From: Nitrospirota bacterium
Lineage (GTDB): Bacteria > Nitrospirota > UBA9217
Assembly: GCA_963818475.1 (NCBI GenBank)
Contig: CAWFSF010000006.1
Coordinates: 288,001-352,000, forward strand
DNA length: 64,000 nucleotides
Direction: 5' to 3'
Shown: positions 10,597-61,909 of the stretch, piece by piece
Layout of the letters: each line of letters begins with the position of its first letter
How positions within the stretch are numbered: the first letter of the stretch is position 1
Notes under the pieces: generated by a model
Database searches by the model: none
Told to the model about the DNA's origin: nothing
What the model saw: only the letters and a program-made list of their open reading frames with translations
Position numbers and translations under genes: made by a program

Positions 10597-10628
10597 CCCT
10601 GAACTTGGACAAGCCGGAACCAACCTTT

Positions 10629-10729
10629 ACCACGAAGACACGAAGTCGCGAAGAATGATAAAAACCGAAAGATACTGTTTAACTGATTACTATTAAGGCC
10701 GTACTTCGTGATCTTAGTGCCTTCGTGGC
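10629..10729. repeat. Empty shell of the CCACGAAG(ACACGAAG)n inverted-repeat element
   Basis: ACCACGAAGACACGAAGTCGCGAAG ... CTTCGTGATCTTAGTGCCTTCGTGGC. Confidence 0.8.
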
Positions 10730-10763
10730 ATAATGCTTGCTGTTGCGGCTGGAGGCCGCGCTA

Positions 10764-17851: not shown

Positions 17852-17964
17852 GAATGCAAAAGGCAAAGTGCAAAATGCGAACGTTAGGTAAATTGATACA
17901 AAGTCCAAAGTCCGCTTTCCGTTCCAATTTTGCAGGTTGAAATTTGCACTTTACTTTTTGCACT
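17852..17964. repeat. Inverted heptamer tandem repeats (TGCAAAA/TGCAAAG-type)
   Basis: AATGCAA AAGGCAA AGTGCAA AATGCGA ... TTTGCAC TTTACTT TTTGCAC. Confidence 0.6.
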
Positions 17965-22965: not shown

Positions 22966-23008
22966 CTCATCCTCTCCCCAACGAGGGAGAGGACCGAGGT
23001 GAGGGGGG
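22966..23008. repeat. DUF559-associated palindrome (CCTCTCCC..GGGAGAGG..GGTGAGGGG)
   Basis: Hairpin motif, inverted relative to 23386-23430. Confidence 0.75.
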
Positions 23009-23010
23009 AA

Positions 23011-23361
23011 TCAGATTCCCTTTTCCATCTTTTCCAATATATCAGCCATAACTACTTCCGGCGATTTTAATACGTCATGGTTCCAGTAACGTAAAACACG
23101 GTAGCCCCGTTCTTTCAACCAGGCACTTCTTTTTTCATCATATTGAACTTGATCGGTGTGCTGGCCTCCATCGAGTTCGATGATCAAGCGTTGTTCTAAA
23201 CAGATAAAATCTACAATATAAGACCCGATCGGCTGCTGTCTCCGGAACTTAAATGCACCCAGTTGACGCATTCGCAGGTGTTTCCAAAGAAGCCGTTCCG
23301 CGTCGGTTGCTTTCCTGCGTAATTGCCTTGCGTTTGTGATACTGGTAGGACTGTGCTCCAT
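23011..23361 (-). CDS. DUF559 / Vsr-like endonuclease domain protein inserted between nuoL and nuoM
   Basis: ARQLRR..TDAE..LW..LR, FRRQ.PIG.YIVDF, IELDGGQH, GYRVLR.WN. Confidence 0.9.
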   Translation of the reverse strand: MEHSPTSITNARQLRRKATDAERLLWKHLRMRQLGAFKFRRQQPIGSYIVDFICLEQRLIIELDGGQHTDQVQYDEKRSAWLKERGYRVLRYWNHDVLKSPEVVMADILEKMEKGI

Positions 23362-23385
23362 TTATGGAGATCCTTCCCTTTTATC

Positions 23386-23430
23386 CCCCTCACCCTGGCC
23401 CCTCCCTCGAAGGGGAGAGGGAATAAGGGG
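23386..23430. repeat. DUF559-associated palindrome (CCCCTCACCC..CCCCTCCC..GGGGAGAGGG)
   Basis: Upstream boundary of the DUF559 cassette. Confidence 0.75.
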
Positions 23431-23437
23431 CTACATC

Positions 23438-25326
23438 CTACTGAAAGAGCAATATGAACCCCAAAAACACCACCACACCCACAGCGATCCCCATTGCATA
23501 CCATCGTATATTGCCGGTCTGTGTTCTGCTCAAGACACGGTGCAAGGCCGTATTCATGGTAACGATGCCGTCATATCCGCTATCAATGAAGTCATCCTTA
23601 TTGATCCTCGCGATCCAAAGAAAGGGTTTTACCAAAAGGGCATCATAGAGGGCATCAAATCCCCAGCCTGCGAACCAGAACCTGCGCAGCGCCTCAACCG
23701 GGCTGGCAGTTGCGAACTTATCAGCATAGGCCGGTTTGCGAACGTAGAGAACGTAAGCAAGCACGATACCTGAAACAGAGACTAATGAAGCCACGATCTG
23801 CAAGAGCAGTTCCATGTTTCCTGCTGCATGTATCTGGCGAAGCCGGGAATACCGCTGACATGAAATTCGAGAAGAGCGGCATATTGCCGAGCGTATCAGG
23901 AATTTCGATAAAACCTCCGATAATGGATAAAAGAGCGAGCACGATGAGCGGAGCGGTCATACGTCTCCCCGGTTTCATACTGAGCCCGATCTTTTCTTTT
24001 CCAAAGAAGGTGACAAATACCATCCTGAAGGTATAGAGCGAAGTAATGAACGCCCCCAAAAGGCCTGCCAGCCAGAGCCAGATGTTGCCTGTTGGCGACG
24101 ACCATGCTTGCCACAGGATCAGGTCCTTGCTGTAGAACCCTGCGGTCACGAGCGGCAACGCCGAGAGCGAGGCCGAGCCGATGAGGAATGTCCAGAACAC
24201 CAGCAGGAAGCCGCTTCCTGAGCCCGCCCATCTTGAACATGTCGTGTTCCTCGTGCTGGGCCAGGATGACGACACCTGCGCCAAGGAACAGCAGCGCTTT
24301 GAAGAACGCGTGGGTCATGAAGTGGAACATTGCTGCCGACCAGGCGCCAACGCCCAGGGCAAGGAACATGTAGCCGATCTGACTGATCGTTGAATAGGCA
24401 AGCACCCGTTTGATATCTTTCTGCGTCAGGGCGCTGAAACCTGCAAGCAGCAGCGTTGCTGCACCGATGACTGCTACGGCCGTCTGAACAGGAGGCGCGA
24501 GCAGAAACAGAACGTGGGTACGGGCAATGAGATACACGCCGGCGGTCACCATGGTGGCTGCATGGATGAGCGCGCTGACCGGCGTGGGGCCAGCCATGGC
24601 ATCGGGAAGCCAGGTCTGGAGCGGCAGCTGGGCGGATTTACCGACTGCTCCTCCCAGAAGCAGTGCCGCCGCAGCCATTGCCAGGGGAGAGCCGATCTGC
24701 CATTCAGCCGAGGCCCGCTGCATCAGTTCCTGAATATGGAGCGTTCCGAGGTTCGTGTACAAGAGGAACAGACCGATCGCCATGAAGGTATCGCCGATGC
24801 GCGTTACGATAAAGGCCTTGCGCGCAGCAGCGCCGTTCACGGGATCCTTGTACCAGAACCCGATCAGCAGATAACTGCAGAGGCCCACGCCTTCCCACCC
24901 GAGATACAGGAGCAGCAGGTTGTCAGCCAGTACGAGCGTCAGCATGGATCCGACAAAGAGGTTCATATAAGCGAAGAAACGGCTGTATCCTTCGTCGTTC
25001 TGCATGAATTCAGCAGAATAAAGATGAATGAGGAAGCCCACAAAGGTGATGACGAAAATCATGACGAGCGACAGCGCATCAAGAGAGAATGAAACGCTGG
25101 CCGAGAAACCGCCGACCTTCATCCAGGTCCAGAGCGTCTGTGTGAATGCAATGTCCTGAGACCCGATGAACTCGATCGCCATGATCATGGTCAGGAGAGC
25201 GGACATGCCGACTGAGCCCGCTCCGACGAGGGCGATTGTGGCCCGGGAGAGGCGACGGCCTGCCAGCGCCAGGATCAGGAATCCGGCAAAGGGCAGGGAA
25301 GGTATGAGGAAAAGATAATTAGACAT
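23438..25326 (-). CDS. nuoL: NADH-quinone oxidoreductase subunit L (two frameshifts)
   Basis: GWEGVGLCSYLLIGFW, GKSAQLPLQTWLPDAMAGPTPVSALIHAATMV, HAFFKALLFL. Confidence 0.94.
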
Positions 25327-25337
25327 ACGTTAGATTC

Positions 25338-25427
25338 ACCACAAGACAAGTTGAACCGCAGAGACGCCGAGACGCTGAGAAAATCCTAGCGATTATGCAT
25401 TTCTCTGTGTCTCCGTGCCTCCGTGGT
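25338..25427. repeat. ACCGCAGAGACGCCGAG..CTCCGTGCCTCCGTGGT inverted 8-mer array shell between nuoK and nuoL
   Basis: Tandem 8-mers in opposite orientation at the two ends. Confidence 0.65.
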
Positions 25428-25749: not shown

Positions 25750-26264
25750 GATCTGCCCTCTTCAACTTTTCCATGACGATGGGGCCTGCCGAGGTGGTAG
25801 GCGCCAACCAGTCCGCTCAGCAGAAGCATGGACGCCAGCTCAACGCCGATCACATAGGGGCCGAAGAGCGCGATGCCGATCTCCTTGGGCGATATTTCAG
25901 CGCCAACAGAGAGTCGTTCCTGGCCGGTCGCGAACAGGTAGATAAGCTCGGCAGCGAGGACGATGATAAGGAGGGACGGGCCGATCCATATACCCGGTGT
26001 CAAAAGCCGGGCTTCCTCTTTCGCCGCCTGTCCGCCGAGGTTCAGCATCATAATGACGAATATGAAAAGCACCATGATGGCGCCGGCGTAGATGATCACT
26101 TCGAGCGCAGCCACGAAGGGCGCGCCAAGGGCAAAGAAGATCAAAGCTACTGCCAGCAGCGATACAATCAGGTAGAGTAGGGCATGCACGGCATTCGTCC
26201 GGGTAATGACCAGGATGGTCGAGATGACTGCCACGAGGGCTGAGATGTAGAAAAGAAAGTTCAT
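25746..26264 (-). CDS. nuoJ: NADH-quinone oxidoreductase subunit J
   Basis: [23 protein letters not shown]. Confidence 0.93.
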
Positions 26265-26277
26265 GAACACCTTTTTT

Positions 26278-26750
26278 GCCACGAAGGCACGAAGACACGA
26301 AGAACTTCTAAAAAAGTAAAAGCCGCTATACAACAATCCTTTTTATGCCGTGCTTAATAAGGGGGACATTAAAGTTAATGAGAAAACCTAAACGTTTATC
26401 GGTCAATTTTAAGTGACTAATTATCTGGGCTTCCCAGACAGGGTGCATTTCTTCCACTGCTTTTAGCTCGCAAATAGCCAGATTTTCGACAAGAACATCC
26501 AGTCGTAATCCTTCGTCGAATTTAAGTCCGTCGTATTCAATGGGGATGTCCACTTGTCTTTGGTTTTGTAATCCTCGTTTAGTCAACTCATGACAAAAAC
26601 AAATCTCATATACTTTTTCAAGCAAGCCCGGCCCTAGTGCTTTGTGGACAGTGTAAGCCGCATCAACGATTTTCTTGGCAATAACCTCTTCAGTTTCCGA
26701 CAAGTTAAGAGTGCTCATGACTCCCCTTCGTGTCTTCGTGCCTTCGTGGC
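26278..26750 (-). mobile_element. Putative GxxExxY cassette element bounded by inverted (CACGAAGG/CACGAAGA)x3 arrays
   Basis: GCCACGAAGGCACGAAGACACGAAG at the left end and its exact reverse complement at the right end; AT-rich interior. Confidence 0.7.
26326..26718 (-). CDS. GxxExxY protein (PD-(D/E)XK nuclease-like)
   Basis: VHKALGPGLLEKVY, RLDVLVE, ELKAVE, GFLINF. Confidence 0.92.
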   Translation of the reverse strand: MSTLNLSETEEVIAKKIVDAAYTVHKALGPGLLEKVYEICFCHELTKRGLQNQRQVDIPIEYDGLKFDEGLRLDVLVENLAICELKAVEEMHPVWEAQIISHLKLTDKRLGFLINFNVPLIKHGIKRIVV

Positions 26751-26759
26751 AAATTATGT

Positions 26760-27275
26760 TTAGGGTAGTAAGCTCCTTGTATCAACGGGCTTTTCTTCAT
26801 TCTCAGCTTCGCCCTTGTCCTTCCCCTTGATCGACAAGCCTGCGACACGGTAGAAATTATACTCATGGTACTTGCCGGGGCCGCTGATCAGCAGGTCTTC
26901 TTTCTCGTATACGAGGTTCTGCCGCTTATATTCACCCATCTCGAAATCGGTGGTGAGCTGTATGGCATTGGTCGGGCATGCTTCTTCGCAGTATCCGCAA
27001 AAGATGCAGCGCGAGAAGTTGATCCGGAAGAACTCGGGATACCGCCTTCCGTGCTCGTCCTCGGTCGACTGGAGCGAGATGCAGTCCACCGGGCAGGCCA
27101 CGGCGCACAAATAGCATGCGACGCAGCGTTCCTGGCCGTCGGGGTCGCGGGAGAGGATGATCCTGCCGCGCCACCGGGGAGGGATATAAGGCCGCTCCTC
27201 GGGGTACTGGATCGTCGCCCGCTTCCGGAACATGGTCATGAAGACCGTATAGATCGTTTTGAGAAGACTAATCAT
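26760..27275 (-). CDS. nuoI: NADH-quinone oxidoreductase subunit I
   Basis: Two CxxCxxCxxxCP motifs; RDPDGQERC. Confidence 0.96.
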
Positions 27276-27283
27276 ATGAACCT

Positions 27284-27372
27284 TTTGACACTGAAGGACA
27301 CTGATCTCGTTATGATTAAAACATACGATCTAAAGACGTATCATAAAAAATCTGTGTTGATCAGTGTCTAAA
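27284..27372. repeat. TTTGACACTGAAGGACACTGAT..ATCAGTGTC shell between nuoH and nuoI
   Basis: Shares TTGACACTGAAGGACACTGAT with 32546. Confidence 0.75.
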
Positions 27373-28331: not shown

Positions 28332-31052
28332 TTGTTTGCCCGTTTGATTCCGATTTTACTCGCTCCCTGATACCCGGCGCATACATGCTGAGTTCTTCTG
28401 AACCAAAAATGCGATACATCGGAGAATCAGGCTTTTCGCCTTGCTTGGATAGATTGGCATCTGGAATGTTTTGGAAGTAGGTTATTTCCGCGACGGTCTC
28501 CCCCCTCACCCCAGCCCTCTCCCGCGAGGGGAGAGGGGAAACTTGTCCCTCTCTTGATGGGAGGGATGAAGGGAGGGTGAGAGGTTCGATCAAGCGAATT
28601 CCCGTATCGCCGCCTTTCAAGCATCACCGCCGATCTCCTCCTGGTACTTGTTCAGCGCCTGGACCGAGTTCCACCCTGGAGACCAGTAGCGCGAAATAAG
28701 CGGGGCAGGCGGTTGGCCTTCGTATCCTTCCATGGAAAAAGACAAGCGGGGAATCAGCATCGTCGGCTGGTTTGGGTTCATGTACGCTGATGTTCGCGAG
28801 CATGGACGTCCTGCCGCTGTACCGGTGCGGCTGACGCGGTATCTTCTGTCCCGATATCCGAAAGTCAGCTGTCGGTGCAATGTCCAGGACAGGCTTGAAA
28901 ACAGGCAAAGAGGAAGCCATCTCCTCAATAACATCATCCAATGATCGTTTGCCCTCTCCCCCGAGGGAGAGGGTTGGGTGAGGGGGGCTTTCCCGATTGC
29001 TTGCATTATATCATCGATCCACTTCCAGCTTTCCTGAATGTCATGGTTCGGATCGAATACCTTATAGAACCGCTGTGCCCTGCCTTCATTATTCACCAGC
29101 GTCCCATGTGCCTCGGCAAATGTCGCAGCAGGCAGGGTTACATCCGCTTTTGATGAGGTTGGGTTGATCAGGTGATCGATAACGATGACGTTCTTTGCAT
29201 GGGATCAATGCTTCATCGACGATCTTTGCATCAGCCCTGCGATAGAGATCATTTTCGAGGATGATCAGCGTATCTGCCTTGACTGTCCTGCATGGTTTTG
29301 AATGCAGCATCTATATTCTTACCCTTCATGAGAGCGAGTCCCATGGTATTGCATTCAAGAGCTCGTGTAGCAGAGGTCGGCCTGCTTGCCAATCGAGCAA
29401 AGAGCCCATGCAACATTGGCTGCTGCCTCGATAACAGCCTGGTTCATGCATCCGGTGCCGCTCACGATGACCGGCCGCTGTGCGTTCTTGAGCGCGGAGG
29501 CGATCTCGCGTGCGAGAGGCATTCTATCGGTGTCCCCCCTCACCTCGAGTCCTCTCCCCCGATGGGAGAGGAGGGAGAGTGTCAGGTGCATCGGGATCCA
29601 GTTCATGTGCCACGGCAAAACCGAGTCTTGCGATGTCATCGTGCGCAGCTAGATAGGTCTTTGTTGCCACATCATCCAGTTTCGTCTTTTCACAGGACGC
29701 TATATAGAGCGGTGTTCTGATGTTCTGTCCTGCGTTCCTGACAGCATTATCATCCCAGACAGGAATCTTCATGGCTGCCGCAGCCTCGCGTTGTTTGTTC
29801 TGTGCCGCCTGACGAAGCGCGAGGGCGAGCATCGGGGCCGTGTTGGTCACATCCTCGCCAAGTATCAAGACCGCATCTGCTGACTGAACGTCATGGAGCG
29901 ACGGTATCCTGGCAGGACCTCTTTGAAGGATATCGATTATGAGTTCTGTTAGCCGGTGCTCTTTATCAGATACCCCTGAATAGAAATTATCCGGTCCCAC
30001 AAGGGTGCGAAGTGCGAAGTTGGATTCCAGCGAGGCCCGGGGAGAACCGATGCCGATCACGCCTTTGCTTTGAGAAAGCATGTCGGCTATGCGTTTGAGG
30101 GCTGTTACTTTTTCAACGGGTTGCTGCTTCCCCTCACCCCGTCCCTCTCCCTCAGGAGAGAGTAGTGCCCCTCCTAGGGAGGGGGAGAGGGTGACGTTGC
30201 AACAAGAGGTTTTCTGATCCTTTTTCCGCTGTTCACGAACTCATAACCGAACCTGCCGCGGTCGCAGAGGAAATAGCCGTTTACCTCATGGTTGTATCGG
30301 TTCAATATCCTGCGCAGCGTGCCGTATCGTTCGCCCGGGATCGTGTTGCATCCGATGCCGCAGTGAACGCAGATGGACGGCGCTGTCTGAAGGTCCCACT
30401 TTCGGGTGTAATGCTGTTTGAGCGTCTTGTCTGTAAAAACACCGGTGGGACAGACCTCTACCAGGTTCCCGCTGAACTCGCTTTCGAGCGCGCCCTCTTC
30501 ATGCCTGCCGAAATAGACGTTGTCATGGGACCCGAACACGTTAAAGTCGCGGCCGCCTGCATAATTACGATAGAACCTGACGCAGCGGTAGCACTGGATG
30601 CAGCGGTTCATCTCATGATTGATGAAGGGGCCGAGGTCCTGGTTTCGGTGCGTCCGTTTTTTGAACCGCGTCCTGCGGTAATTATGGCCGGTCATGACCG
30701 TCATGTCCTGGAGGTGGCACTCGCCGCCTTCGTCGCAGACCGGACAGTCATGCGGATGGTTCAGCATGAGCCATTCGATCACGCTCGACCGGAAGGCCCG
30801 CGCATCAGGATCGTCAATGGACAAACGCATGCCTTCCGCCACCGGGGTCATGCAGGACATGGTGATCCTGCCGCGCGTATCCTTGTCGTCTTTGAACACC
30901 TTGACCGCGCATTGACGGCATGCGCCCACGGAGTGCAGGGCAGGGTGCCAGCAGAAGTAGGGAAGGTCGAACCCCAGCGAGAGGCAGGCCTGGAGGAGGT
31001 TCTGGCCTTCTTTTACCTGATGGGGTTTATTGTCGATGTAGATCGTAAACAT
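28324..31052 (-). CDS. nuoG: NADH-quinone oxidoreductase subunit G (several frameshifts; four internal palindromes)
   Basis: [58 protein letters not shown]-terminal IFGSEELS. Confidence 0.9.
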
Positions 31053-31072
31053 ACAAAACCTTTTACAGAATA

Positions 31073-31253
31073 TTTGACACGGATTTTCACGGATTTAAAC
31101 GCCGATAAGGGCGGATAAATGCAGAATCAAGCTGATTTGTTAAAAGACACGGCGAACTATTTTAAGTTTTTCTCCGAAATTGAGCGTTGTTTCAGCATGT
31201 ATCAAGTTGCTATCAGCCGTGATCATAATTAAATCCGCTCCTTCCGTGTCAAA
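31073..31253 (-). mobile_element. Internally deleted GxxExxY-type element with 28-aa remnant ORF (31140-31226)
   Basis: TTTGACACGGA..TCCGTGTCAAA terminal inverted repeats; remnant MITADSNLIHAETT-LNFGEKLKIVRRVF. Confidence 0.65.
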
Positions 31254-32529
31254 GGATTTTCTCCCACGGGCATTTCTTCTCCCGTATATGCCTCTCAAAA
31301 TCTTCCCGGAAATACTTGATCGCGCTCTGAAGCGGCTCCACCGCGCCCGGCGCGAGCGCGCAGTAGGTGTTCCCGGGGCCGAGCAGCTTGCACTGCTGCG
31401 CAAGGATATCGATGTCTCCGGGTTCTCCCTCGCCGTTCTCGATCGCATGGAGCATTTTCTCGATCCACGGCAGGCCCTCGCGGCAGGGCGTGCACCAGCC
31501 GCAGGATTCGCGGCGGAAGAAAGTCTCAAGGTTATGCACAAAGCCGACGGGGCAGGTCTTGTCATCAAGCACGATCATGGTGCCGGTGCCCATGCGGCTG
31601 CCGGCCTTCATGACCGAGTCAAAGTCCATCTTCACGTCCAGATGTTCGGCAACCAGAAAATCGGTCGACGCGCCGCCGGGGATCACGCCGCGAAATTGAT
31701 AGCCATCCTGCATCCCGCCGGCATGTTCTTCCAGAAGTTCCCGGACCGTGACTCCTATGGGAAGTTCCCAGATTCCGGGTTTTTTCACCCTGCCGCTGAC
31801 GCCGTACAGCTTGGTGCCGGCGTCGGGACCCTTGCTCAATCCCTTGAACCAGTCCGGCCCGTTCTGAACAATATGCGGAATGTTCGCAATGGTCTCGGCA
31901 TTGTTCACGATCGTCGGCCTTCCCCAGAGGCCGCAGACCTGCGGGAAGGGCGGTTTGGAGCGCGGCGTGGCGCGCTTTCCTTCGAGGGCGTTCAAGAGCG
32001 CTGTTTCCTCGCCGCAGATGTAGCGGCCGGCGCTGGAATGGATGCGAAGGTCGAGGTCGAATCCGGAACCAAAGATGTTCTTTCCGAGATACCCTGCTGC
32101 ATAGGCTTCTGCAATTGCTGTCCCCAGCCTCTTCTCGGCAAGCTTGTATGCCCAGCGGAGAAAGATATAAGACTGTTCCGCCTGAATGGCATAGGCGCTG
32201 ACGATCACGCCTTCCACGATCTGGTGCGGATCACCTTCGAGCAGCATGCGGTCCTTGAACGTGCCGGGCTCCATCTCGTCGGCGTTCACCACGAGATATT
32301 TGATCTTCGGCGCGTTGTCGCCCATGGGCACAAAGCTCCACTTGGCGCCTGTGGGGAAGCCTGCACCACCGCGGCCGCGCAGGTTCGAGGCCTTGACCAT
32401 GTCCTGCACCTGCTGGGGCGTCATGGTAAGCGCTTTGCGCGCAGCTTCATAGCCGCCCGCTTTCTCGTAGTCTTTCAGCGAGAGCGGTTCCTGGTTGGGG
32501 CGGATGTTATTGGTGAGCGGTCGTTCCAT
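31249..32529 (-). CDS. nuoF: NADH-quinone oxidoreductase subunit F
   Basis: LRGRGGAGFPTG, NADEMEPGTFKD, GRYICGEETAL, ESCGWCTPCREG. Confidence 0.96.
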   Translation of the reverse strand: MERPLTNNIRPNQEPLSLKDYEKAGGYEAARKALTMTPQQVQDMVKASNLRGRGGAGFPTGAKWSFVPMGDNAPKIKYLVVNADEMEPGTFKDRMLLEGDPHQIVEGVIVSAYAIQAEQSYIFLRWAYKLAEKRLGTAIAEAYAAGYLGKNIFGSGFDLDLRIHSSAGRYICGEETALLNALEGKRATPRSKPPFPQVCGLWGRPTIVNNAETIANIPHIVQNGPDWFKGLSKGPDAGTKLYGVSGRVKKPGIWELPIGVTVRELLEEHAGGMQDGYQFRGVIPGGASTDFLVAEHLDVKMDFDSVMKAGSRMGTGTMIVLDDKTCPVGFVHNLETFFRRESCGWCTPCREGLPWIEKMLHAIENGEGEPGDIDILAQQCKLLGPGNTYCALAPGAVEPLQSAIKYFREDFERHIREKKCPWEKIL

Positions 32530-33122: not shown

Positions 33123-33507
33123 TTACCTCCTCTCCCCAAGGGGAGAGGATTGAGGTGAGGGGGTGTTCTCTGTTGCTCTCAGAATAACTTCACAAACACC
33201 TGCAATATTCATTAAGATGTCCCTGTCGCTGAATCGTAACATCCGTATGCCTTGCATTTCCAAAGCTTCGGTTCTAACTTTATCTTTTGTTACTCCTTCA
33301 TCGGTGTAGTGCTGACCGCCGTCTGCCTCTACTGCGATCTTGTGCTCGGGTGCATAGAAGTCCAGAATATACTTGTCTATCGAGAACTGTCTTCTGAACT
33401 TTATTCCATTGAGCTGACGATTGCGAAGAACAGACCAAAGCTTTCTTTCAGCATCAGTCTAAATTTTTTCGAAGCTTTCTGCTGGCTGATATATTGGGTC
33501 GCTTCAA
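33123..33507 (-). CDS. Second DUF559 / Vsr-like endonuclease, between nuoCD and nuoE (one frameshift; absent from the ORF track)
   Basis: Manual translation: RKLRKN..TDAERKLWSVLRNRQLNGIKFRRQFSIDKYILDFYAPEHKIAVEADGGQH..GIRMLRF; palindromes at 33126-33163 and 33511-33549. Confidence 0.85.
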
Positions 33508-33559
33508 CGTCCCCCCTCACCCCAACCCTCTCCCCGGAGGGTAGAGGGAGTTTTTAATA

Positions 33560-35323: not shown

Positions 35324-35508
35324 TTGACACTGATGAACACTGAGAGAAACTATGCTGAACCAGGAGAAACCGGAACAAAAATCTAAAGGCGCCTCTCGCA
35401 ATGGTCCCAGACCACGATGAGGCGCAAAGGGCGCAAAGGAAATCATTTAGTCCTGGTTTTTAACCCGAGTGAATTGCTTTTCTTTGCGAGCTTTGCGCCT
35501 TTGCGAGA
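35324..35508. repeat. Composite repeat shells between nuoB and nuoCD
   Basis: TTGACACTGATGAACACTGA half-element plus GCGCAAAGGGCGCAAAG..CTTTGCGAGCTTTGCGCCTTTGCGAGA inverted array. Confidence 0.7.
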
Positions 35509-36166: not shown

Positions 36167-36232
36167 AGCTTATAGTTAGGAGTAAGGAGTTAGTTACAAA
36201 TCAAATTCTATACAAAAGACAAGGAACTTATC

Positions 36233-36334
36233 GCCACGAAGGCACTAAGACACGAAGAACTTCATGAAAATTATCGAGTTAATTAAATTACAAAAATACT
36301 CATGCCTCTCTTCGTGCCTTCGTGTCTTCGTGGC
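36233..36334. mobile_element. Empty, non-autonomous copy of the 26278-26750 element
   Basis: GCCACGAAGGCACTAAGACACGAAGAACTTC ... CTCATG..CTTCGTGCCTTCGTGTCTTCGTGGC. Confidence 0.75.
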
Positions 36335-36359
36335 AGGTTTTGTTCCGGTTTGACCGGTC

Positions 36360-38958: not shown

Positions 38959-40542
38959 ATGCCGTCCATGAAATCGCTGACACAGTTGGTGGCACAGATG
39001 GTGATGCCGAGGATCAACGGCATGCAGCTTGAAGATCCTGTCTATCGTCAGGAGATCGAGGCGCTGGTCCGGGAAGGTATGGGCGGGTTCATTCTCTTCG
39101 GCGGCTCCGTAGAGCATACGCCGGCCAGGCTCGCCGCTCTCCAGGCGCTGGCAACAACGCCGCTTTTGATCTCTTCCGATGTGGAGCGGGGACTGGGCCA
39201 GCAGCTCCAGGGCGGCACCCGCTTCCCGAGCCAACGCGCGGTTGCCGCCGCGATCAGCCGCAGCTCAACGTCAGATGCCGGACTGCTCCAGAGCATGCTC
39301 GACGCAGTCCGGACCGAGACCAGGGCCGCGGGCATCCATATCGTGTTCTCGCCGGTCATGGACGTGAACAACAACTCCGACAATCCGATCATCTGCACCC
39401 GGGCCTTTGGCGATGAGCCCGGGGTCGTTGAGTGGTTCGGTTCCCGCTATATCACCGGCCTGCAGCGGTCGAATCATAACGGAACGCTCGATCTTCTTGC
39501 CTGCGCCAAGCACTTTCCCGGCCACGGAGACACGGACCAGGACTCCCATTCCGTGCTGCCCGTGATCAAAGCGGACCGGGCGCGGCTGAACAGCGTGGAA
39601 CTGCCGCCGTTCCGCGAGGCAGTGAAGGACGGCGTCGGCACCATCATGGTGGCCCATTTGCTCGTTCCGGCACTGGACGCGGAAAAACCGACGACGTTCT
39701 CGAAAAAAACGATCACCGCGCTTCTTCGCGAGGGCATGGGCTTCGATGGATTGATCGTGTCCGATGCGCTTGATATGGGGGCACTGGCCGGGGCCTATTC
39801 TCAGGAAGAGATCGCGGTCCGGGCCGTAACAGCAGGCATGGACATCCTCCTCCATCCTATTGACGCGCGCGTGACCATCAATGCCGTGGCTGCGGCAGTT
39901 GAACAGGGCAGGCTGACCAGGACCAGGATCGAAGAATCGGTCGGCAGGATCCGCGAAGCCAAGATGCGGCTCGGCCTTTTCGACCCGGCTGTAACAAAGA
40001 CCCCGCAGATCGATTACGAAAAGCATCGCGGCATCGCGCGCGAACTGAGCCGGAGGGCGCTGCAGATAGTTTCAGGGGACAAAAAGGTCCTGCCGCTCGG
40101 CATCGATAGCGCAGCCTGCTTTATGCTCGATGACGATGCCGAAGGCAGGGGAGATGTTTTCCTCCGTACGCTCCAGGCAAAGGTCGGCACGTTCAGCGGG
40201 ACCGTGCTGACGCCTGATACGGAATTGCAGCAGTCGCACCTCGGCGAACAGATCGCAGCCGCGGACTGGGTCGTGCTCCCGATCTTCTCAAAGATATCCG
40301 CCTCCAAAGGACGCTCGGGCATTTCGCCGAAGCTCCGGGCCATGGCATCACAGGTCATCGCAGCAGCTCAGGCCGCAAAAAAACGGTCCGTGGTCATTTC
40401 GTTCGACAGCCCCTACATCCTCGAACAATTCAAGAACGCCGATCTCTGCATCGCCGCCTATGACCGTATGGACGAGATCCAGCAGGCCGCGGCGGAGATG
40501 CTGGTGGGGAGTGTCGAGGAGCAGGTAGCAAGTAGCAAGTAG
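38959..40542 (+). CDS. nagZ: GH3 beta-N-acetylhexosaminidase
   Basis: D.E.G, P.MDVNNN..NPII..RAFG, KHFPGHGDT..DSH, SDALDM. Confidence 0.88.
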   Translation: MPSMKSLTQLVAQMVMPRINGMQLEDPVYRQEIEALVREGMGGFILFGGSVEHTPARLAALQALATTPLLISSDVERGLGQQLQGGTRFPSQRAVAAAISRSSTSDAGLLQSMLDAVRTETRAAGIHIVFSPVMDVNNNSDNPIICTRAFGDEPGVVEWFGSRYITGLQRSNHNGTLDLLACAKHFPGHGDTDQDSHSVLPVIKADRARLNSVELPPFREAVKDGVGTIMVAHLLVPALDAEKPTTFSKKTITALLREGMGFDGLIVSDALDMGALAGAYSQEEIAVRAVTAGMDILLHPIDARVTINAVAAAVEQGRLTRTRIEESVGRIREAKMRLGLFDPAVTKTPQIDYEKHRGIARELSRRALQIVSGDKKVLPLGIDSAACFMLDDDAEGRGDVFLRTLQAKVGTFSGTVLTPDTELQQSHLGEQIAAADWVVLPIFSKISASKGRSGISPKLRAMASQVIAAAQAAKKRSVVISFDSPYILEQFKNADLCIAAYDRMDEIQQAAAEMLVGSVEEQVASSK

Positions 40543-40605
40543 CAAGGAGCGACAGTCTCATTTTTACCTTGGCACTTGCTACTTGACCCTTGCCCCTAAT
40601 TTCCT

Positions 40606-45352: not shown

Positions 45353-46449
45353 GGTAGCGACACGGCGGCCGAGGAGAAGGAGTTCAACTGGAAGGCGGTA
45401 TGCGACCAGGTAAGGAATCTTCCGCTTCCCACAGAGGACAGGCCTTCACCGGATGAAGCGAAAGCCATTCAGGGCTGTTCTTCGGAAGACATCTATTACG
45501 GCATTACCGGACCGGCTGATCCGGTGAAGGCGCGCAAGTGTGCGTATATCGAGCTGGAACAGGGAGACGAGATGGTCTTCGGGGGTTCATCCAGTCTCAT
45601 GACGATCTATGCAAACGGCAGAGGGGCAAAAAGGAATTACGATCTCGCCATAAAGTTCGCCTGCCTGCAGGAAGGCGCTCCCGCGGAAATGGAAGGACGC
45701 ATACAGAACCTGACCGTGAAAAAGCAGACGGGCTGGAAGGGCGACAATTTCAGCCTCTGCGACGATATCACGAGCGGGTTCATGCAGGGGCATTGCGAGG
45801 CGCACCGCGAACGGTTTAAAGAGGTTGAGCGGAAAAGAAAAACCGAAGCCCTCACGGCGAAGTGGAGCGACGCCGACCGGAAGACGTTCGAGAAGGTGCG
45901 AAAGGCGGCCGATAGCTTTTTCGACCTGAGGTCCGACAGTGAAGTGGATTTGTCGGGAACCGGGAGGGCTGCATTCGAGATAGAGGAAAGGCGAGCTCTT
46001 GAAAACGATTTCGTGGCGATGATCGAATTGCTGGAAAGCGGAAAGTTGCCGATCTTTACGGAAAAGCAGTTCGCGGAGGCCGATAAAAAATTGAATGCCG
46101 TATACAAGAAGATCCAGAAGGCTCCGGACTTTCAAGAAGGTACGGTGACTCAGGAGGACATCAGAAAAACGCAAAGAGCGTGGATCGTCTATCGTGATGC
46201 CTGGGTCGCGTTTTCGACGAGCAAGTATGCAGGCATCGCCGCGGAAAGCATCAAGACACAGCTAACGAGGAAACGAACGAAAATGCTGTCTGAATTTACT
46301 AAATAGTTCGAAGGCGCCGCAAAATCCCATCCTTACCTCGTTCCTCTTCTTGACGAAGAGGGGCAAATGGCAAAGGATATAATTCGCTCCGCGGAGAAAT
46401 TGATGAAAGAACCGGATGATGATCAAAAGATCGAGGAGGGAGCTGCAGT

Positions 46450-53341: not shown

Positions 53342-53372
53342 AAGAGTTAATGAAAAAACGGGTAAATCAAAA

Positions 53373-53967
53373 AAAACCTTCGACACGGAAGAATCGGATT
53401 AACTGCTGGTAAAAGATAAGTTAAAGGGCAAGGGGTTCATACGAAGGACAAACCGTTTTTGCCGTATCCGATGTTATCCGGCTTTTATCCGCCTTTATCC
53501 GTGTCCAAGATCTTTCAGGATTTTCTGTCCAATTATTTTATAAACGTCACCCGGTTGATCTCCTTCAAGTAAAACCTTTGACACGGAAGAATCGGATTAA
53601 CTGCTGGTAAAAGATAAGTTAAAGGGCAAGGGGTTCATACGAAGGACAAACCGTTTTTGCCGTATCCGATGTTATCCGGCTTTTATCCGCCTTTATCCGT
53701 GTCCAAGATCTTTCAGGATTTTCTGTCCAATTATTTTATAAACGTCACCCGGTTGATCTCCTTCAAGTAAAACCTTTGACACGGAAGAATCGGATTAACT
53801 GCTGATAAAGGCGGATACGTCAAGGGGCAAGGGGTTCATACGAAGGACAAACCGTTTTCGCCGTATCCGATGTTATCCGGCTTTTATCCGCCCTTATCCG
53901 TGTCCAAGGCCTTTCAGGATTCTCTGTCCCATTATTCTATAAATGTCACCCGGTTGATCTCCTTCAG
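53373..53967. repeat. Three tandem units of about 198 bp, each a pilB 3' end plus an inverted-repeat shell
   Basis: GACACGGAAGAATCGG at 53382, 53580 and 53778; units 1 and 2 differ at one base, unit 3 is more diverged. Confidence 0.92.
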
Positions 53968-61615: not shown

Positions 61616-61909
61616 GACTGCTGCCTTCCGTTCGTTCCAGACGTCGCCTTTCCCTCCGCTGCTTTGAAGGTTATCCTATTGTCCACAACTATACATATTT
61701 CGGGATTCAATAACACGGCCTGCAAACTCGCTCCGCCCGGCTTCGTACCTTCCCTCACGGAAACGCACGCGGGCTTCGCTACCGACCTGCCAGCTGGGCT
61801 TTAGTCGGGTGGGACTTGAGCAACGACACTCTCGCCCACTGGACAATAATGACAAATTTCATCACGCCTACGGCGTGATTCCCGATATCTCGGGCTTATC
61901 TTGACGCAA
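61616..61909 (-). mobile_element. 5' fragment (domain I region) of a group II intron; no RT ORF or domains V-VI
   Basis: Begins TTGCGTCAAGATAAG; contains AGTCCCACC..AAAGCCCAG..GGTAGCGAAG..CGAAGC..GAGCGAGTTTGCAGGCCGTG..CGGAAGGCAGCAGTC, typical of bacterial IIB-like introns. Confidence 0.7.

Follow-up and report, generated by a model that had tools for sequence, protein, structure and literature searches.

A GxxExxY gene between inverted octamer arrays and its gene-less hairpin relatives in operon spacers of a Nitrospirota bacterium

RESULTS

A GxxExxY cassette occupies the nuoI-nuoJ spacer

The spacer between nuoI and nuoJ in a 64,000-nucleotide stretch of a Nitrospirota contig (hereafter the window, i.e. 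the whole stretch of DNA that was analysed) contains a small GxxExxY gene, which is the one ORF between two inverted arms and lies on the same strand as nuoI and nuoJ. The following features were assigned:

26726..26753, minus strand: arm upstream of the gene, with TTTGCC followed by CACGAAGG, CACGAAGA and CACGAAG
26721..26726, minus strand: putative Shine-Dalgarno-like GGGGAG, 2 nt before the ATG and overlapping the last base of the arm
26326..26718, minus strand: GxxExxY gene, 130 amino acids plus stop, from matches to the TIGR04256 and PF13366 profiles
26275..26302, minus strand: arm downstream of the gene, mirroring the upstream one, from reading of the sequence and an inverted-repeat search

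The arms formed a 28-nt inverted repeat with 100% complementarity and 423 nt between them, giving a gene-bearing unit of 479 bp from arm end to arm end. Each arm consisted of TTTGCC and then three tandem 8-mers (i.e. CACGAAG plus one free base). The original prediction had described 25-nt arms of three 8-mers at 26278-26302 and 26726-26750; these were present exactly as claimed and extend to 28 nt. The upstream arm begins 6 nt past the nuoI stop codon (26760-26762) and the downstream arm ends 10 nt ahead of the nuoJ start codon (26262-26264). The two-unit pattern CACGAAGNCACGAAG, allowing up to two mismatches, occurred 14 times in the window; shuffled sequences averaged 0.65 occurrences and peaked at 6, so that none of 100 shuffles reached 14.

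A crude promoter scan of the minus strand from nuoI to the GxxExxY ORF detected no sigma-70-like site, so that the cassette is probably expressed by read-through from the promoter of the nuo operon; a promoter-like site was present before nuoA in the same scan. At gathering scores, Rfam produced no match in the window except a group II intron, whose domains D1-D4 lie on the minus strand at 61619-61818 (RF02005, 59.3 bits). A function of shells (i.e. gene-less arm pairs, described below) as terminators was considered and dropped, as the terminator-like sites detected did not exceed those of shuffles (14 versus 13.4) and none coincided with any shell.

Two further features were noted in the nuo operon. 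A 116-aa DUF559 gene on the minus strand (23011-23361; PF04480, 5.4e-44) represents a second kind of small-nuclease cassette (22971-23420), the arms of which are of the CCCTCACC...CCCTCTCCC type. It has a decayed copy at 33140-33535 and gene-less hairpins (e.g. ~29508-29582) that were also found in the congeneric genome G003. Additionally, nuoL is seemingly split (23438-25326) into an ORF at 23896-25326 with an Arg-rich, seemingly out-of-frame tail and a separate 125-aa ORF at 23438-23815 resembling the NuoL C-terminus, which may reflect a frameshift or an assembly error.

The encoded protein has a predicted PD-(D/E)XK fold

The GxxExxY protein matched TIGR04256 (GxxExxY; 4.2e-40, 136.7 bits against a cut-off of 35) and PF13366 (PDDEXK_3; 9e-38, 129.7 bits against a cut-off of 22). 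The motif residues were assigned as G31-x-x-E34-x-x-Y37 and the nuclease core as D74, E84 and K86. Among 40 sequences taken from related genomes and from other phyla, G31, E34, Y37, D74 and E84 were invariant and K86 was present in at least 90%; the same motif and core residues were invariant across seven paralogues in the window's genome. An AlphaFold (AF2) model had a pLDDT of 94.5, and its fold matches were led by Cas4 SSO0001 (Z 7.9), followed by the BpuSI nuclease domain (7.7), SwaI (7.3) and Hjc (7.3), which places the modelled protein at the generic level of the PD-(D/E)XK superfamily only. From profiles and model, the gene is predicted to encode a small protein of the PD-(D/E)XK fold whose D...ExK core is intact. 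Sequence searches of solved structures gave nothing below E 0.1, a Foldseek search with the model gave nothing at E <= 0.001, and the protein matched no family among the PADLOC defence models (E <= 0.01) or PHROGs. Matches were absent from all 50,697 phage records and were found in 8 of 72,556 plasmid records, each with <60% identity. A survey of the PD-(D/E)XK superfamily lists the function of PF13366 as 'Unknown' in its relevant entry (PMC3424549), and GxxExxY is named in a passage of PMC8934634 that is not about repeats.

Gene-less shells share the arms of the cassette

Arm pairs without a gene (i.e. shells) were detected at several positions of the window:

36190..36359 (about), unstranded: shell between nuoA and nuoB, with arms at 36233-36257 and 36310-36334, a loop of 52 nt, and flanking outer modules that match those of the ~170-bp unit described below
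10597..10749 (about), unstranded: shell of another loop subfamily between two plus-strand genes, with arms at 10629-10653 and 10704-10729
25355..25427, unstranded: shell of a sister arm type (CGCAGAG/CACGGAG units) in the nuoL-nuoK spacer, RNA fold z -4.8
27283-27372, 35420-35500, ~31059-31257, 17855-17962 and 40510-40597: further shells of related kinds

Two gene-less copies had been proposed originally. The first, at 36233-36334, does have the same arms as the cassette together with AACTTC and CTCATG and without a gene, but the true shell is longer (~36190-36359); the ATG of this CTCATG is not kept in other members of the shell subfamily. The second, at 10629-10729, is indeed a more diverged gene-less copy and again falls short of the true shell (~10597-10749). 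Predicted RNA folding was pronounced for both, with -56 kcal/mol and z -6.4 for the former and z -3.9 for the latter.

Inspection of the whole genome revealed 35 inverted pairs of CACGAAG arrays, comprising 34 shells and one gene-bearing unit. Shells spanned 73-109 bp (mostly 95-98) and the gene-bearing pair 469 bp. The sister unit CACGGAG formed 26 pairs, one of which was a 504-bp unit containing another GxxExxY gene. Genes flanking the shells were co-oriented in 56 of 61 cases, and shells themselves occurred in either orientation (10 versus 8). Candidate 'cassettes' of 0.7-2.5 kb with periodic arms were rejected, as these were host genes between two neighbouring shells. A separate cluster of at least three ACACGGA-type hairpins was noted at 53364-53921 with a spacing of ~198 bp.

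Profile searches of this genome gave 13 matches to TIGR04256, interpreted as ~11 loci, and 7 matches to TIGR02436, the four-helix-bundle protein family of 23S rRNA intervening sequences. In a tally that was partly read by eye from the flanks, inverted tandem arrays, each with its own unit, flanked the gene at no fewer than 9 of 11 GxxExxY loci and at 6 of 7 four-helix-bundle loci. All 13 gene-flanking arm types that were probed also occurred as gene-less hairpins, and in 12 of the 13 there was a single pair of gene-bearing size (two in a few rows); these probes were loose and cross-match between related families. The four-helix-bundle cassettes have 7-nt units (e.g. C6:1993523-1994060, C6:864422-864940 and C3:7570-8110) and their own gene-less hairpins (e.g. 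~31 of KCGGATT units). No Y1_Tnp (PF01797) gene with CACGAAG arms was found, the 11 matches in the genome carrying other repeats. One of these RAYT-like genes (C6:80629-81414) was flanked by inverted tandem arrays of ~16 nt (GGTCAGGGAGCAAATAG type), unlike the other Y1 genes of the genome, which have palindromic REPs.

The mobile unit of the shells extends past the arms

Three shells at unrelated loci were 96-97.5% identical over ~160 bp, with unrelated sequence in the next 120 nt on each side. Shells are mobile and have been copied recently. Alignment of the three copies delimited a copied unit of ~170 bp, consisting of a ~44-nt outer module, the hairpin and a second outer module of ~25-30 nt. 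TTAG was present at both borders of this unit in all three copies and may represent a target duplication or a target preference. As the copied unit reaches 44 and ~30 nt beyond the arms, these are internal to the mobile unit of the shells, and the proposal that the arms define the boundaries of the element does not hold for shells. Both outer modules were present in 20 units of the genome, where they enclosed hairpins of five arm types. One outer module of these 20 units (the 36190-36232/36335-36359 kind) has CCGGGTTAGGAG as its end in many cases, immediately ahead of a start codon on that strand, or else CCTAA at a stop codon on the opposite strand, and may supply a ribosome-binding site or a stop to the adjoining genes.

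These data bear on the reading originally proposed for the locus, i.e. a classical autonomous transposon with MITEs, in which the arms would be terminal inverted repeats that are cut, GxxExxY the transposase and the shells internal deletions. The common arms of gene-bearing and gene-less units fit with such an element, as does one shell subfamily in which 9 of 12 and 10 of 13 subterminal bases match those of the cassette (by a hand count; other subfamilies differ). Furthermore, exact removal at GCCAC...GTGGC would leave a 22-nt spacer with a ribosome-binding site, similar to the 19 nt present in the congeneric genome G005. Against this, no target duplication was observed at the arm ends: among 61 pairs there was no excess of direct repeats of 3-5 nt, and some counts of 2-nt direct repeats were above the control. 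Recent shell copies share ~170 bp and not merely the arms, all 20 units with both outer modules contain a hairpin so that none is an empty outer-module pair of the kind expected of a target site, each arm family has a single gene-bearing copy, and distant relatives hold the cassette at the same site (see below). A classical transposon is accordingly considered improbable. The original pairing of gene-bearing and gene-less elements is upheld insofar as the arms are common to all 35 pairs; the shells do not appear to be simple deletion derivatives of the cassette, which is devoid of the outer modules that shells carry.

Cassette-free alleles and distribution among relatives

As had been anticipated, cassette-free nuoI/J alleles do exist. 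The junction was assembled in three of five same-genus genomes and none of these three contained the cassette. The gap between the nuoJ and nuoI alignments was 19 nt in G005 and 26 nt in G002, and G003 retained a 13-nt remnant of one arm. In a public collection, two other Nitrospirota records contained the cassette in the nuoI/J spacer with identities of 88 and 82% for NuoI, 72 and 73% for NuoJ, and 76 and 75% for GxxExxY, so the gene-free spacers of the congeners may be losses rather than pre-insertion states. Soil contigs 90-95% alike to this locus, from four DNA runs, bridged nuoJ-arm-gene and gene-arm-nuoI; no contig joined nuoJ to nuoI across the element among the short contigs of these runs. 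Apparent 'joints' in the same contigs were rejected as empty sites since they represented other shells, with other letters between the two sides. The presence of the cassette in the same spacer of the Nitrospirota records and soil contigs indicates that it is old at nuoI/J or has entered repeatedly, and a tree test did not reject the grouping of the three nuoI/J copies as one clade (p-AU 0.38).

Other GxxExxY cassettes were located within a few kb of nuoI/nuoJ in relatives (G011:C14:144546-144887, G014:C14:178478-178819, and G016:C5:40880-41077 and 46043-46381), and such cassettes seem to settle preferentially in the nuo operon. A congener with a 160-kb syntenic stretch and ~90% nucleotide identity in genes had other shell types in most nuo spacers, two congeneric genomes carried different shell types in the same operon spacers, and in other genera the nuoI/J spacer held other shells, some of them nested within shells.

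Octamer arms numbered 77 in the window's genome; 18 other members of its family had between 0 and 53, and 12 genomes from other families had none. Counts for the genomes named here were as follows:

G003 (arm remnant only at nuoI/J): 21
G002 and G005 (no cassette in the spacer): 1 each
G010: 43
G011: 40 (G010 and G011 both 100% by markers)

A protein with at least 70% identity was encoded only by the window's genome, G009 and G018. In G010 and G011, GxxExxY loci are flanked by arms of other types, and none of them has octamer CACGAAG arms. Since these two genomes hold 40-43 arms and no matching gene, shells can exist without their cognate gene; here the shells may outlive their partner, a related protein may serve them, or the link between gene and shells may be weaker than proposed.

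A benefit to the host was weighed against these distributions. GxxExxY could be a nuclease or binding protein that acts on spacer repeats, as RNA or DNA, to tune segments of operons, with the shells as its cis sites. The gene is under strong purifying selection (dN 0.15 with saturated dS), the nuoI/J cassette is present in three genomes with a protein that has diverged about as much as NuoJ (75-76% versus 72-73%), and shells are found almost only in co-oriented spacers, all of which would fit with a host function. However, congeners differ in the shells of the same spacers, two same-genus genomes have one arm each and no cassette, and near-identical proteins occur in unrelated phyla. For these three reasons a selfish element provides a better fit than service to the host, which we regard as very unlikely.

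The same arms accompany GxxExxY genes in many phyla

A scan of a collection with one genome per species identified 601 candidate stretches, 521 of which encode a GxxExxY relative. The best 80 of these 521 were 61-85% identical and derived from at least 10 phyla (i.e. Thermodesulfobacteriota, Nitrospirota, Planctomycetota, Bacteroidota, Ignavibacteriota, Chloroflexota, Acidobacteriota and others), the closest among them to the window's copy (85%) being from Desulfobacterales. That copies from so many phyla are nearly identical suggests frequent horizontal transfer.

Inverted CACNAAG arrays were present on both sides of the gene in 76 of 79 testable loci, on one side in three and on neither side in none. 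In controls, some match in the wrong orientation was seen in 22 of 79 loci and in 7 of 148 flanks located 300-600 nt away. The arm consensus was GCCAC-N-AAG-N-CAC-N-AAG-N-CAC-N-AAG with two free positions per unit, and the fixed positions were conserved at 86-100% in the outermost unit and mostly at 79-99% further in. At the free positions, the two arms of a cassette agreed in 160 of 450 comparisons as compared to 137 expected from permuted partners, i.e. near chance, indicating that the unit sequence and not the pairing has been kept. Between GxxExxY homologues dS was saturated and dN was 0.10-0.20. Neutral decay would therefore have erased the arms, and both the protein and the fixed arm bases are under purifying selection. 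As sequence has been kept and pairing has not, the arrays are read as candidate protein recognition sites and not only as an RNA stem.

Associations between arm type and protein were examined on a tree built from 40 GxxExxY sequences, where 12 changes of the arm core sufficed versus 25.8 in shuffles (0 of 200 as low), and the CACGAAG group formed a clade with 100/99 support, one row excepted. Labels were assigned by eye and are shared by kin, so this result denotes co-descent of gene and arms and is not proof of recognition. In the window's genome and 18 others from its family, inverted repeats that exceeded the best of 20 shuffles were detected at 25 of 27 testable GxxExxY loci and at 18 of 25 testable four-helix-bundle loci. 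All 25 GxxExxY loci had units of 8-10 nt with a core of C-R-C-R-R-A-K (read by eye), and 15 of the 18 four-helix-bundle loci had a 7-nt period by autocorrelation.

An element acting at the RNA level, similar to the intervening sequences (IVS) of 23S rRNA, was the strongest competitor. The arms would then form a double-stranded stem in the nuo transcript that is cut by RNase III, releasing the message of the ORF and sparing the host operon, with the gene as a selfish passenger and movement by host recombination or an unspecified agent. The IVS of Coxiella 23S rRNA has the same build and is cut by RNase III at the first repeat, according to the part of PMC4990558 concerned with this element. The stem of the window's cassette is a perfect 28 bp, the shells fold with z-scores of -3.9 to -6.4, 56 of 61 shells had co-oriented genes on their two sides, and location in sense was the rule for the homologues in other phyla, where the gene agreed in strand with its upstream neighbour in 53 cases versus 1 and with its downstream neighbour in 50 versus 3 (the rest being ambiguous). 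This reading is opposed by the near-chance arm agreement across the 76 two-sided cassettes, most of whose stems would be 3-bp runs interrupted by mismatches, and by the conservation of unit sequence, which pairing alone does not need. It also leaves the dependence of unit length on protein family unexplained, and none of the 80 loci lies in a 23S gene, the genome's own 23S being free of such an array. We judge this explanation unlikely; it is compatible with the explanation favoured below.

DISCUSSION

The cassette is best explained, with moderate confidence, as the single gene-bearing member of a hairpin-repeat family, i.e. as one half of a REPIN/RAYT-like pair with a different protein. In favour of this are the ratio of one gene to many shells, the arms common to homologues across phyla, the conservation of the motif, the association of arm type with protein clade, the recent copying of shells, the different repeats at all Y1_Tnp matches and the distribution of octamer arms among genomes. 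The arrays of three CAC-N-AAG-N units (CACGAAGN) would be candidate binding sites of the encoded protein, with one unit per protein subunit or per contact. The protein, made by read-through of the host operon, could act on the shells in trans, either through cleavage or by keeping both arrays together, resulting in the copying of ~170-bp shells into new operon spacers, and the gene-bearing copy would be retained by selection as the source of that activity. A catalytic role of GxxExxY in shell mobility is an inference. Several observations weigh against this explanation: the arms are inside the ~170-bp unit, hence are not cut ends, and have no duplication at their ends; G010 and G011 hold many octamer arms but no gene with matching arms; four-helix-bundle cassettes also have shells yet encode no nuclease fold; relatedness alone could couple arm type and protein clade; and the fold matches of the protein are generic to the superfamily, with Z 7.9 at best.

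The protein-repeat pair is a widespread and so far undescribed kind, as no description of GxxExxY together with tandem arrays and gene-less hairpins was found in the openly accessible literature searched. A broader and more tentative proposal, which we consider possible but somewhat doubtful, is that small sequence-specific proteins with unrelated folds, i.e. GxxExxY nucleases (8-10-nt units), the four-helix-bundle IVS proteins (7-nt units) and perhaps DUF559 nucleases with arms of their own, each keep their own hairpin population in bacterial operon spacers and rRNA and constitute a second replicator class, independent of RAYTs. If true, a class of protein-repeat replicators would span many phyla, explain the intervening sequences of 23S rRNA and provide a role for two large families whose function has not been assigned. 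The question of where these intervening sequences come from could then be approached through elements of ordinary operons.

For the large orphan family GxxExxY (TIGR04256, PF13366), the favoured explanation offers a testable role, and the fixed link between protein and array supplies a candidate binding site. Some hairpin repeats for which no transposase is known could gain a candidate partner. A practical consequence concerns annotation, as intergenic repeats yield spurious peptides in many phyla and recognition of the arrays would help to flag them.

Comparison with known systems

Correia/NEMIS and ERIC elements are hairpin MITEs of 100-170 bp that occur in transcribed spacers in either orientation, and to our knowledge no transposase has been assigned to several of them. 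The present family differs in having a candidate partner gene inside one copy and arms that are tandem arrays of a conserved motif. Free-standing homing endonuclease genes, of which PD-(D/E)XK examples exist, resemble the cassette as small in-sense nuclease genes between conserved genes with presence or absence between relatives; homing, however, predicts neither dozens of gene-less hairpins at unrelated sites nor two-sided arrays.

The closest resemblance in build to an rRNA element is to the Coxiella 23S IVS, which is described in the section of PMC4990558 cited above as an ORF for an S23p four-helix bundle after three tandem heptamers whose number varies by strain, and the same source quotes an older idea that the IVS ORF serves mobility. 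Both systems, as far as that account extends, have a small ORF in the loop of an inverted repeat adjoining tandem short repeats and are transcribed within a host RNA, and cassettes with ORFs of the IVS family are also present in this genome. The host of the present cassette is an mRNA operon spacer (nuoI-nuoJ) and not an rRNA helix, the ORF family is another one, and the units are of 8 nt versus 7 nt. For TAACTGA heptamer repeats, a mobile repeat-binding protein is discussed, with none named, in the relevant passage of PMC4679880.

REPIN-RAYT systems combine REP doublets that form hairpins with a single-copy REP-associated tyrosine transposase, as outlined in the abstracts of PMC3337134, PMC5581495 and bioRxiv 10.1101/2022.05.22.493013. 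Within the scope of those descriptions, the likeness comprises a single gene for each repeat family with that repeat on either side of it, a population of tens of short hairpins built from two inverted halves, and persistence at one site. The two systems differ in the protein, which has a predicted PD-(D/E)XK fold (PF13366) here and is a Y1/HUH transposase (PF01797) there, and in the halves of the hairpin, each of which is a tandem 8-mer array here and one palindrome in REPINs. A further difference is the occurrence of near-identical copies of the present cassette in many phyla.
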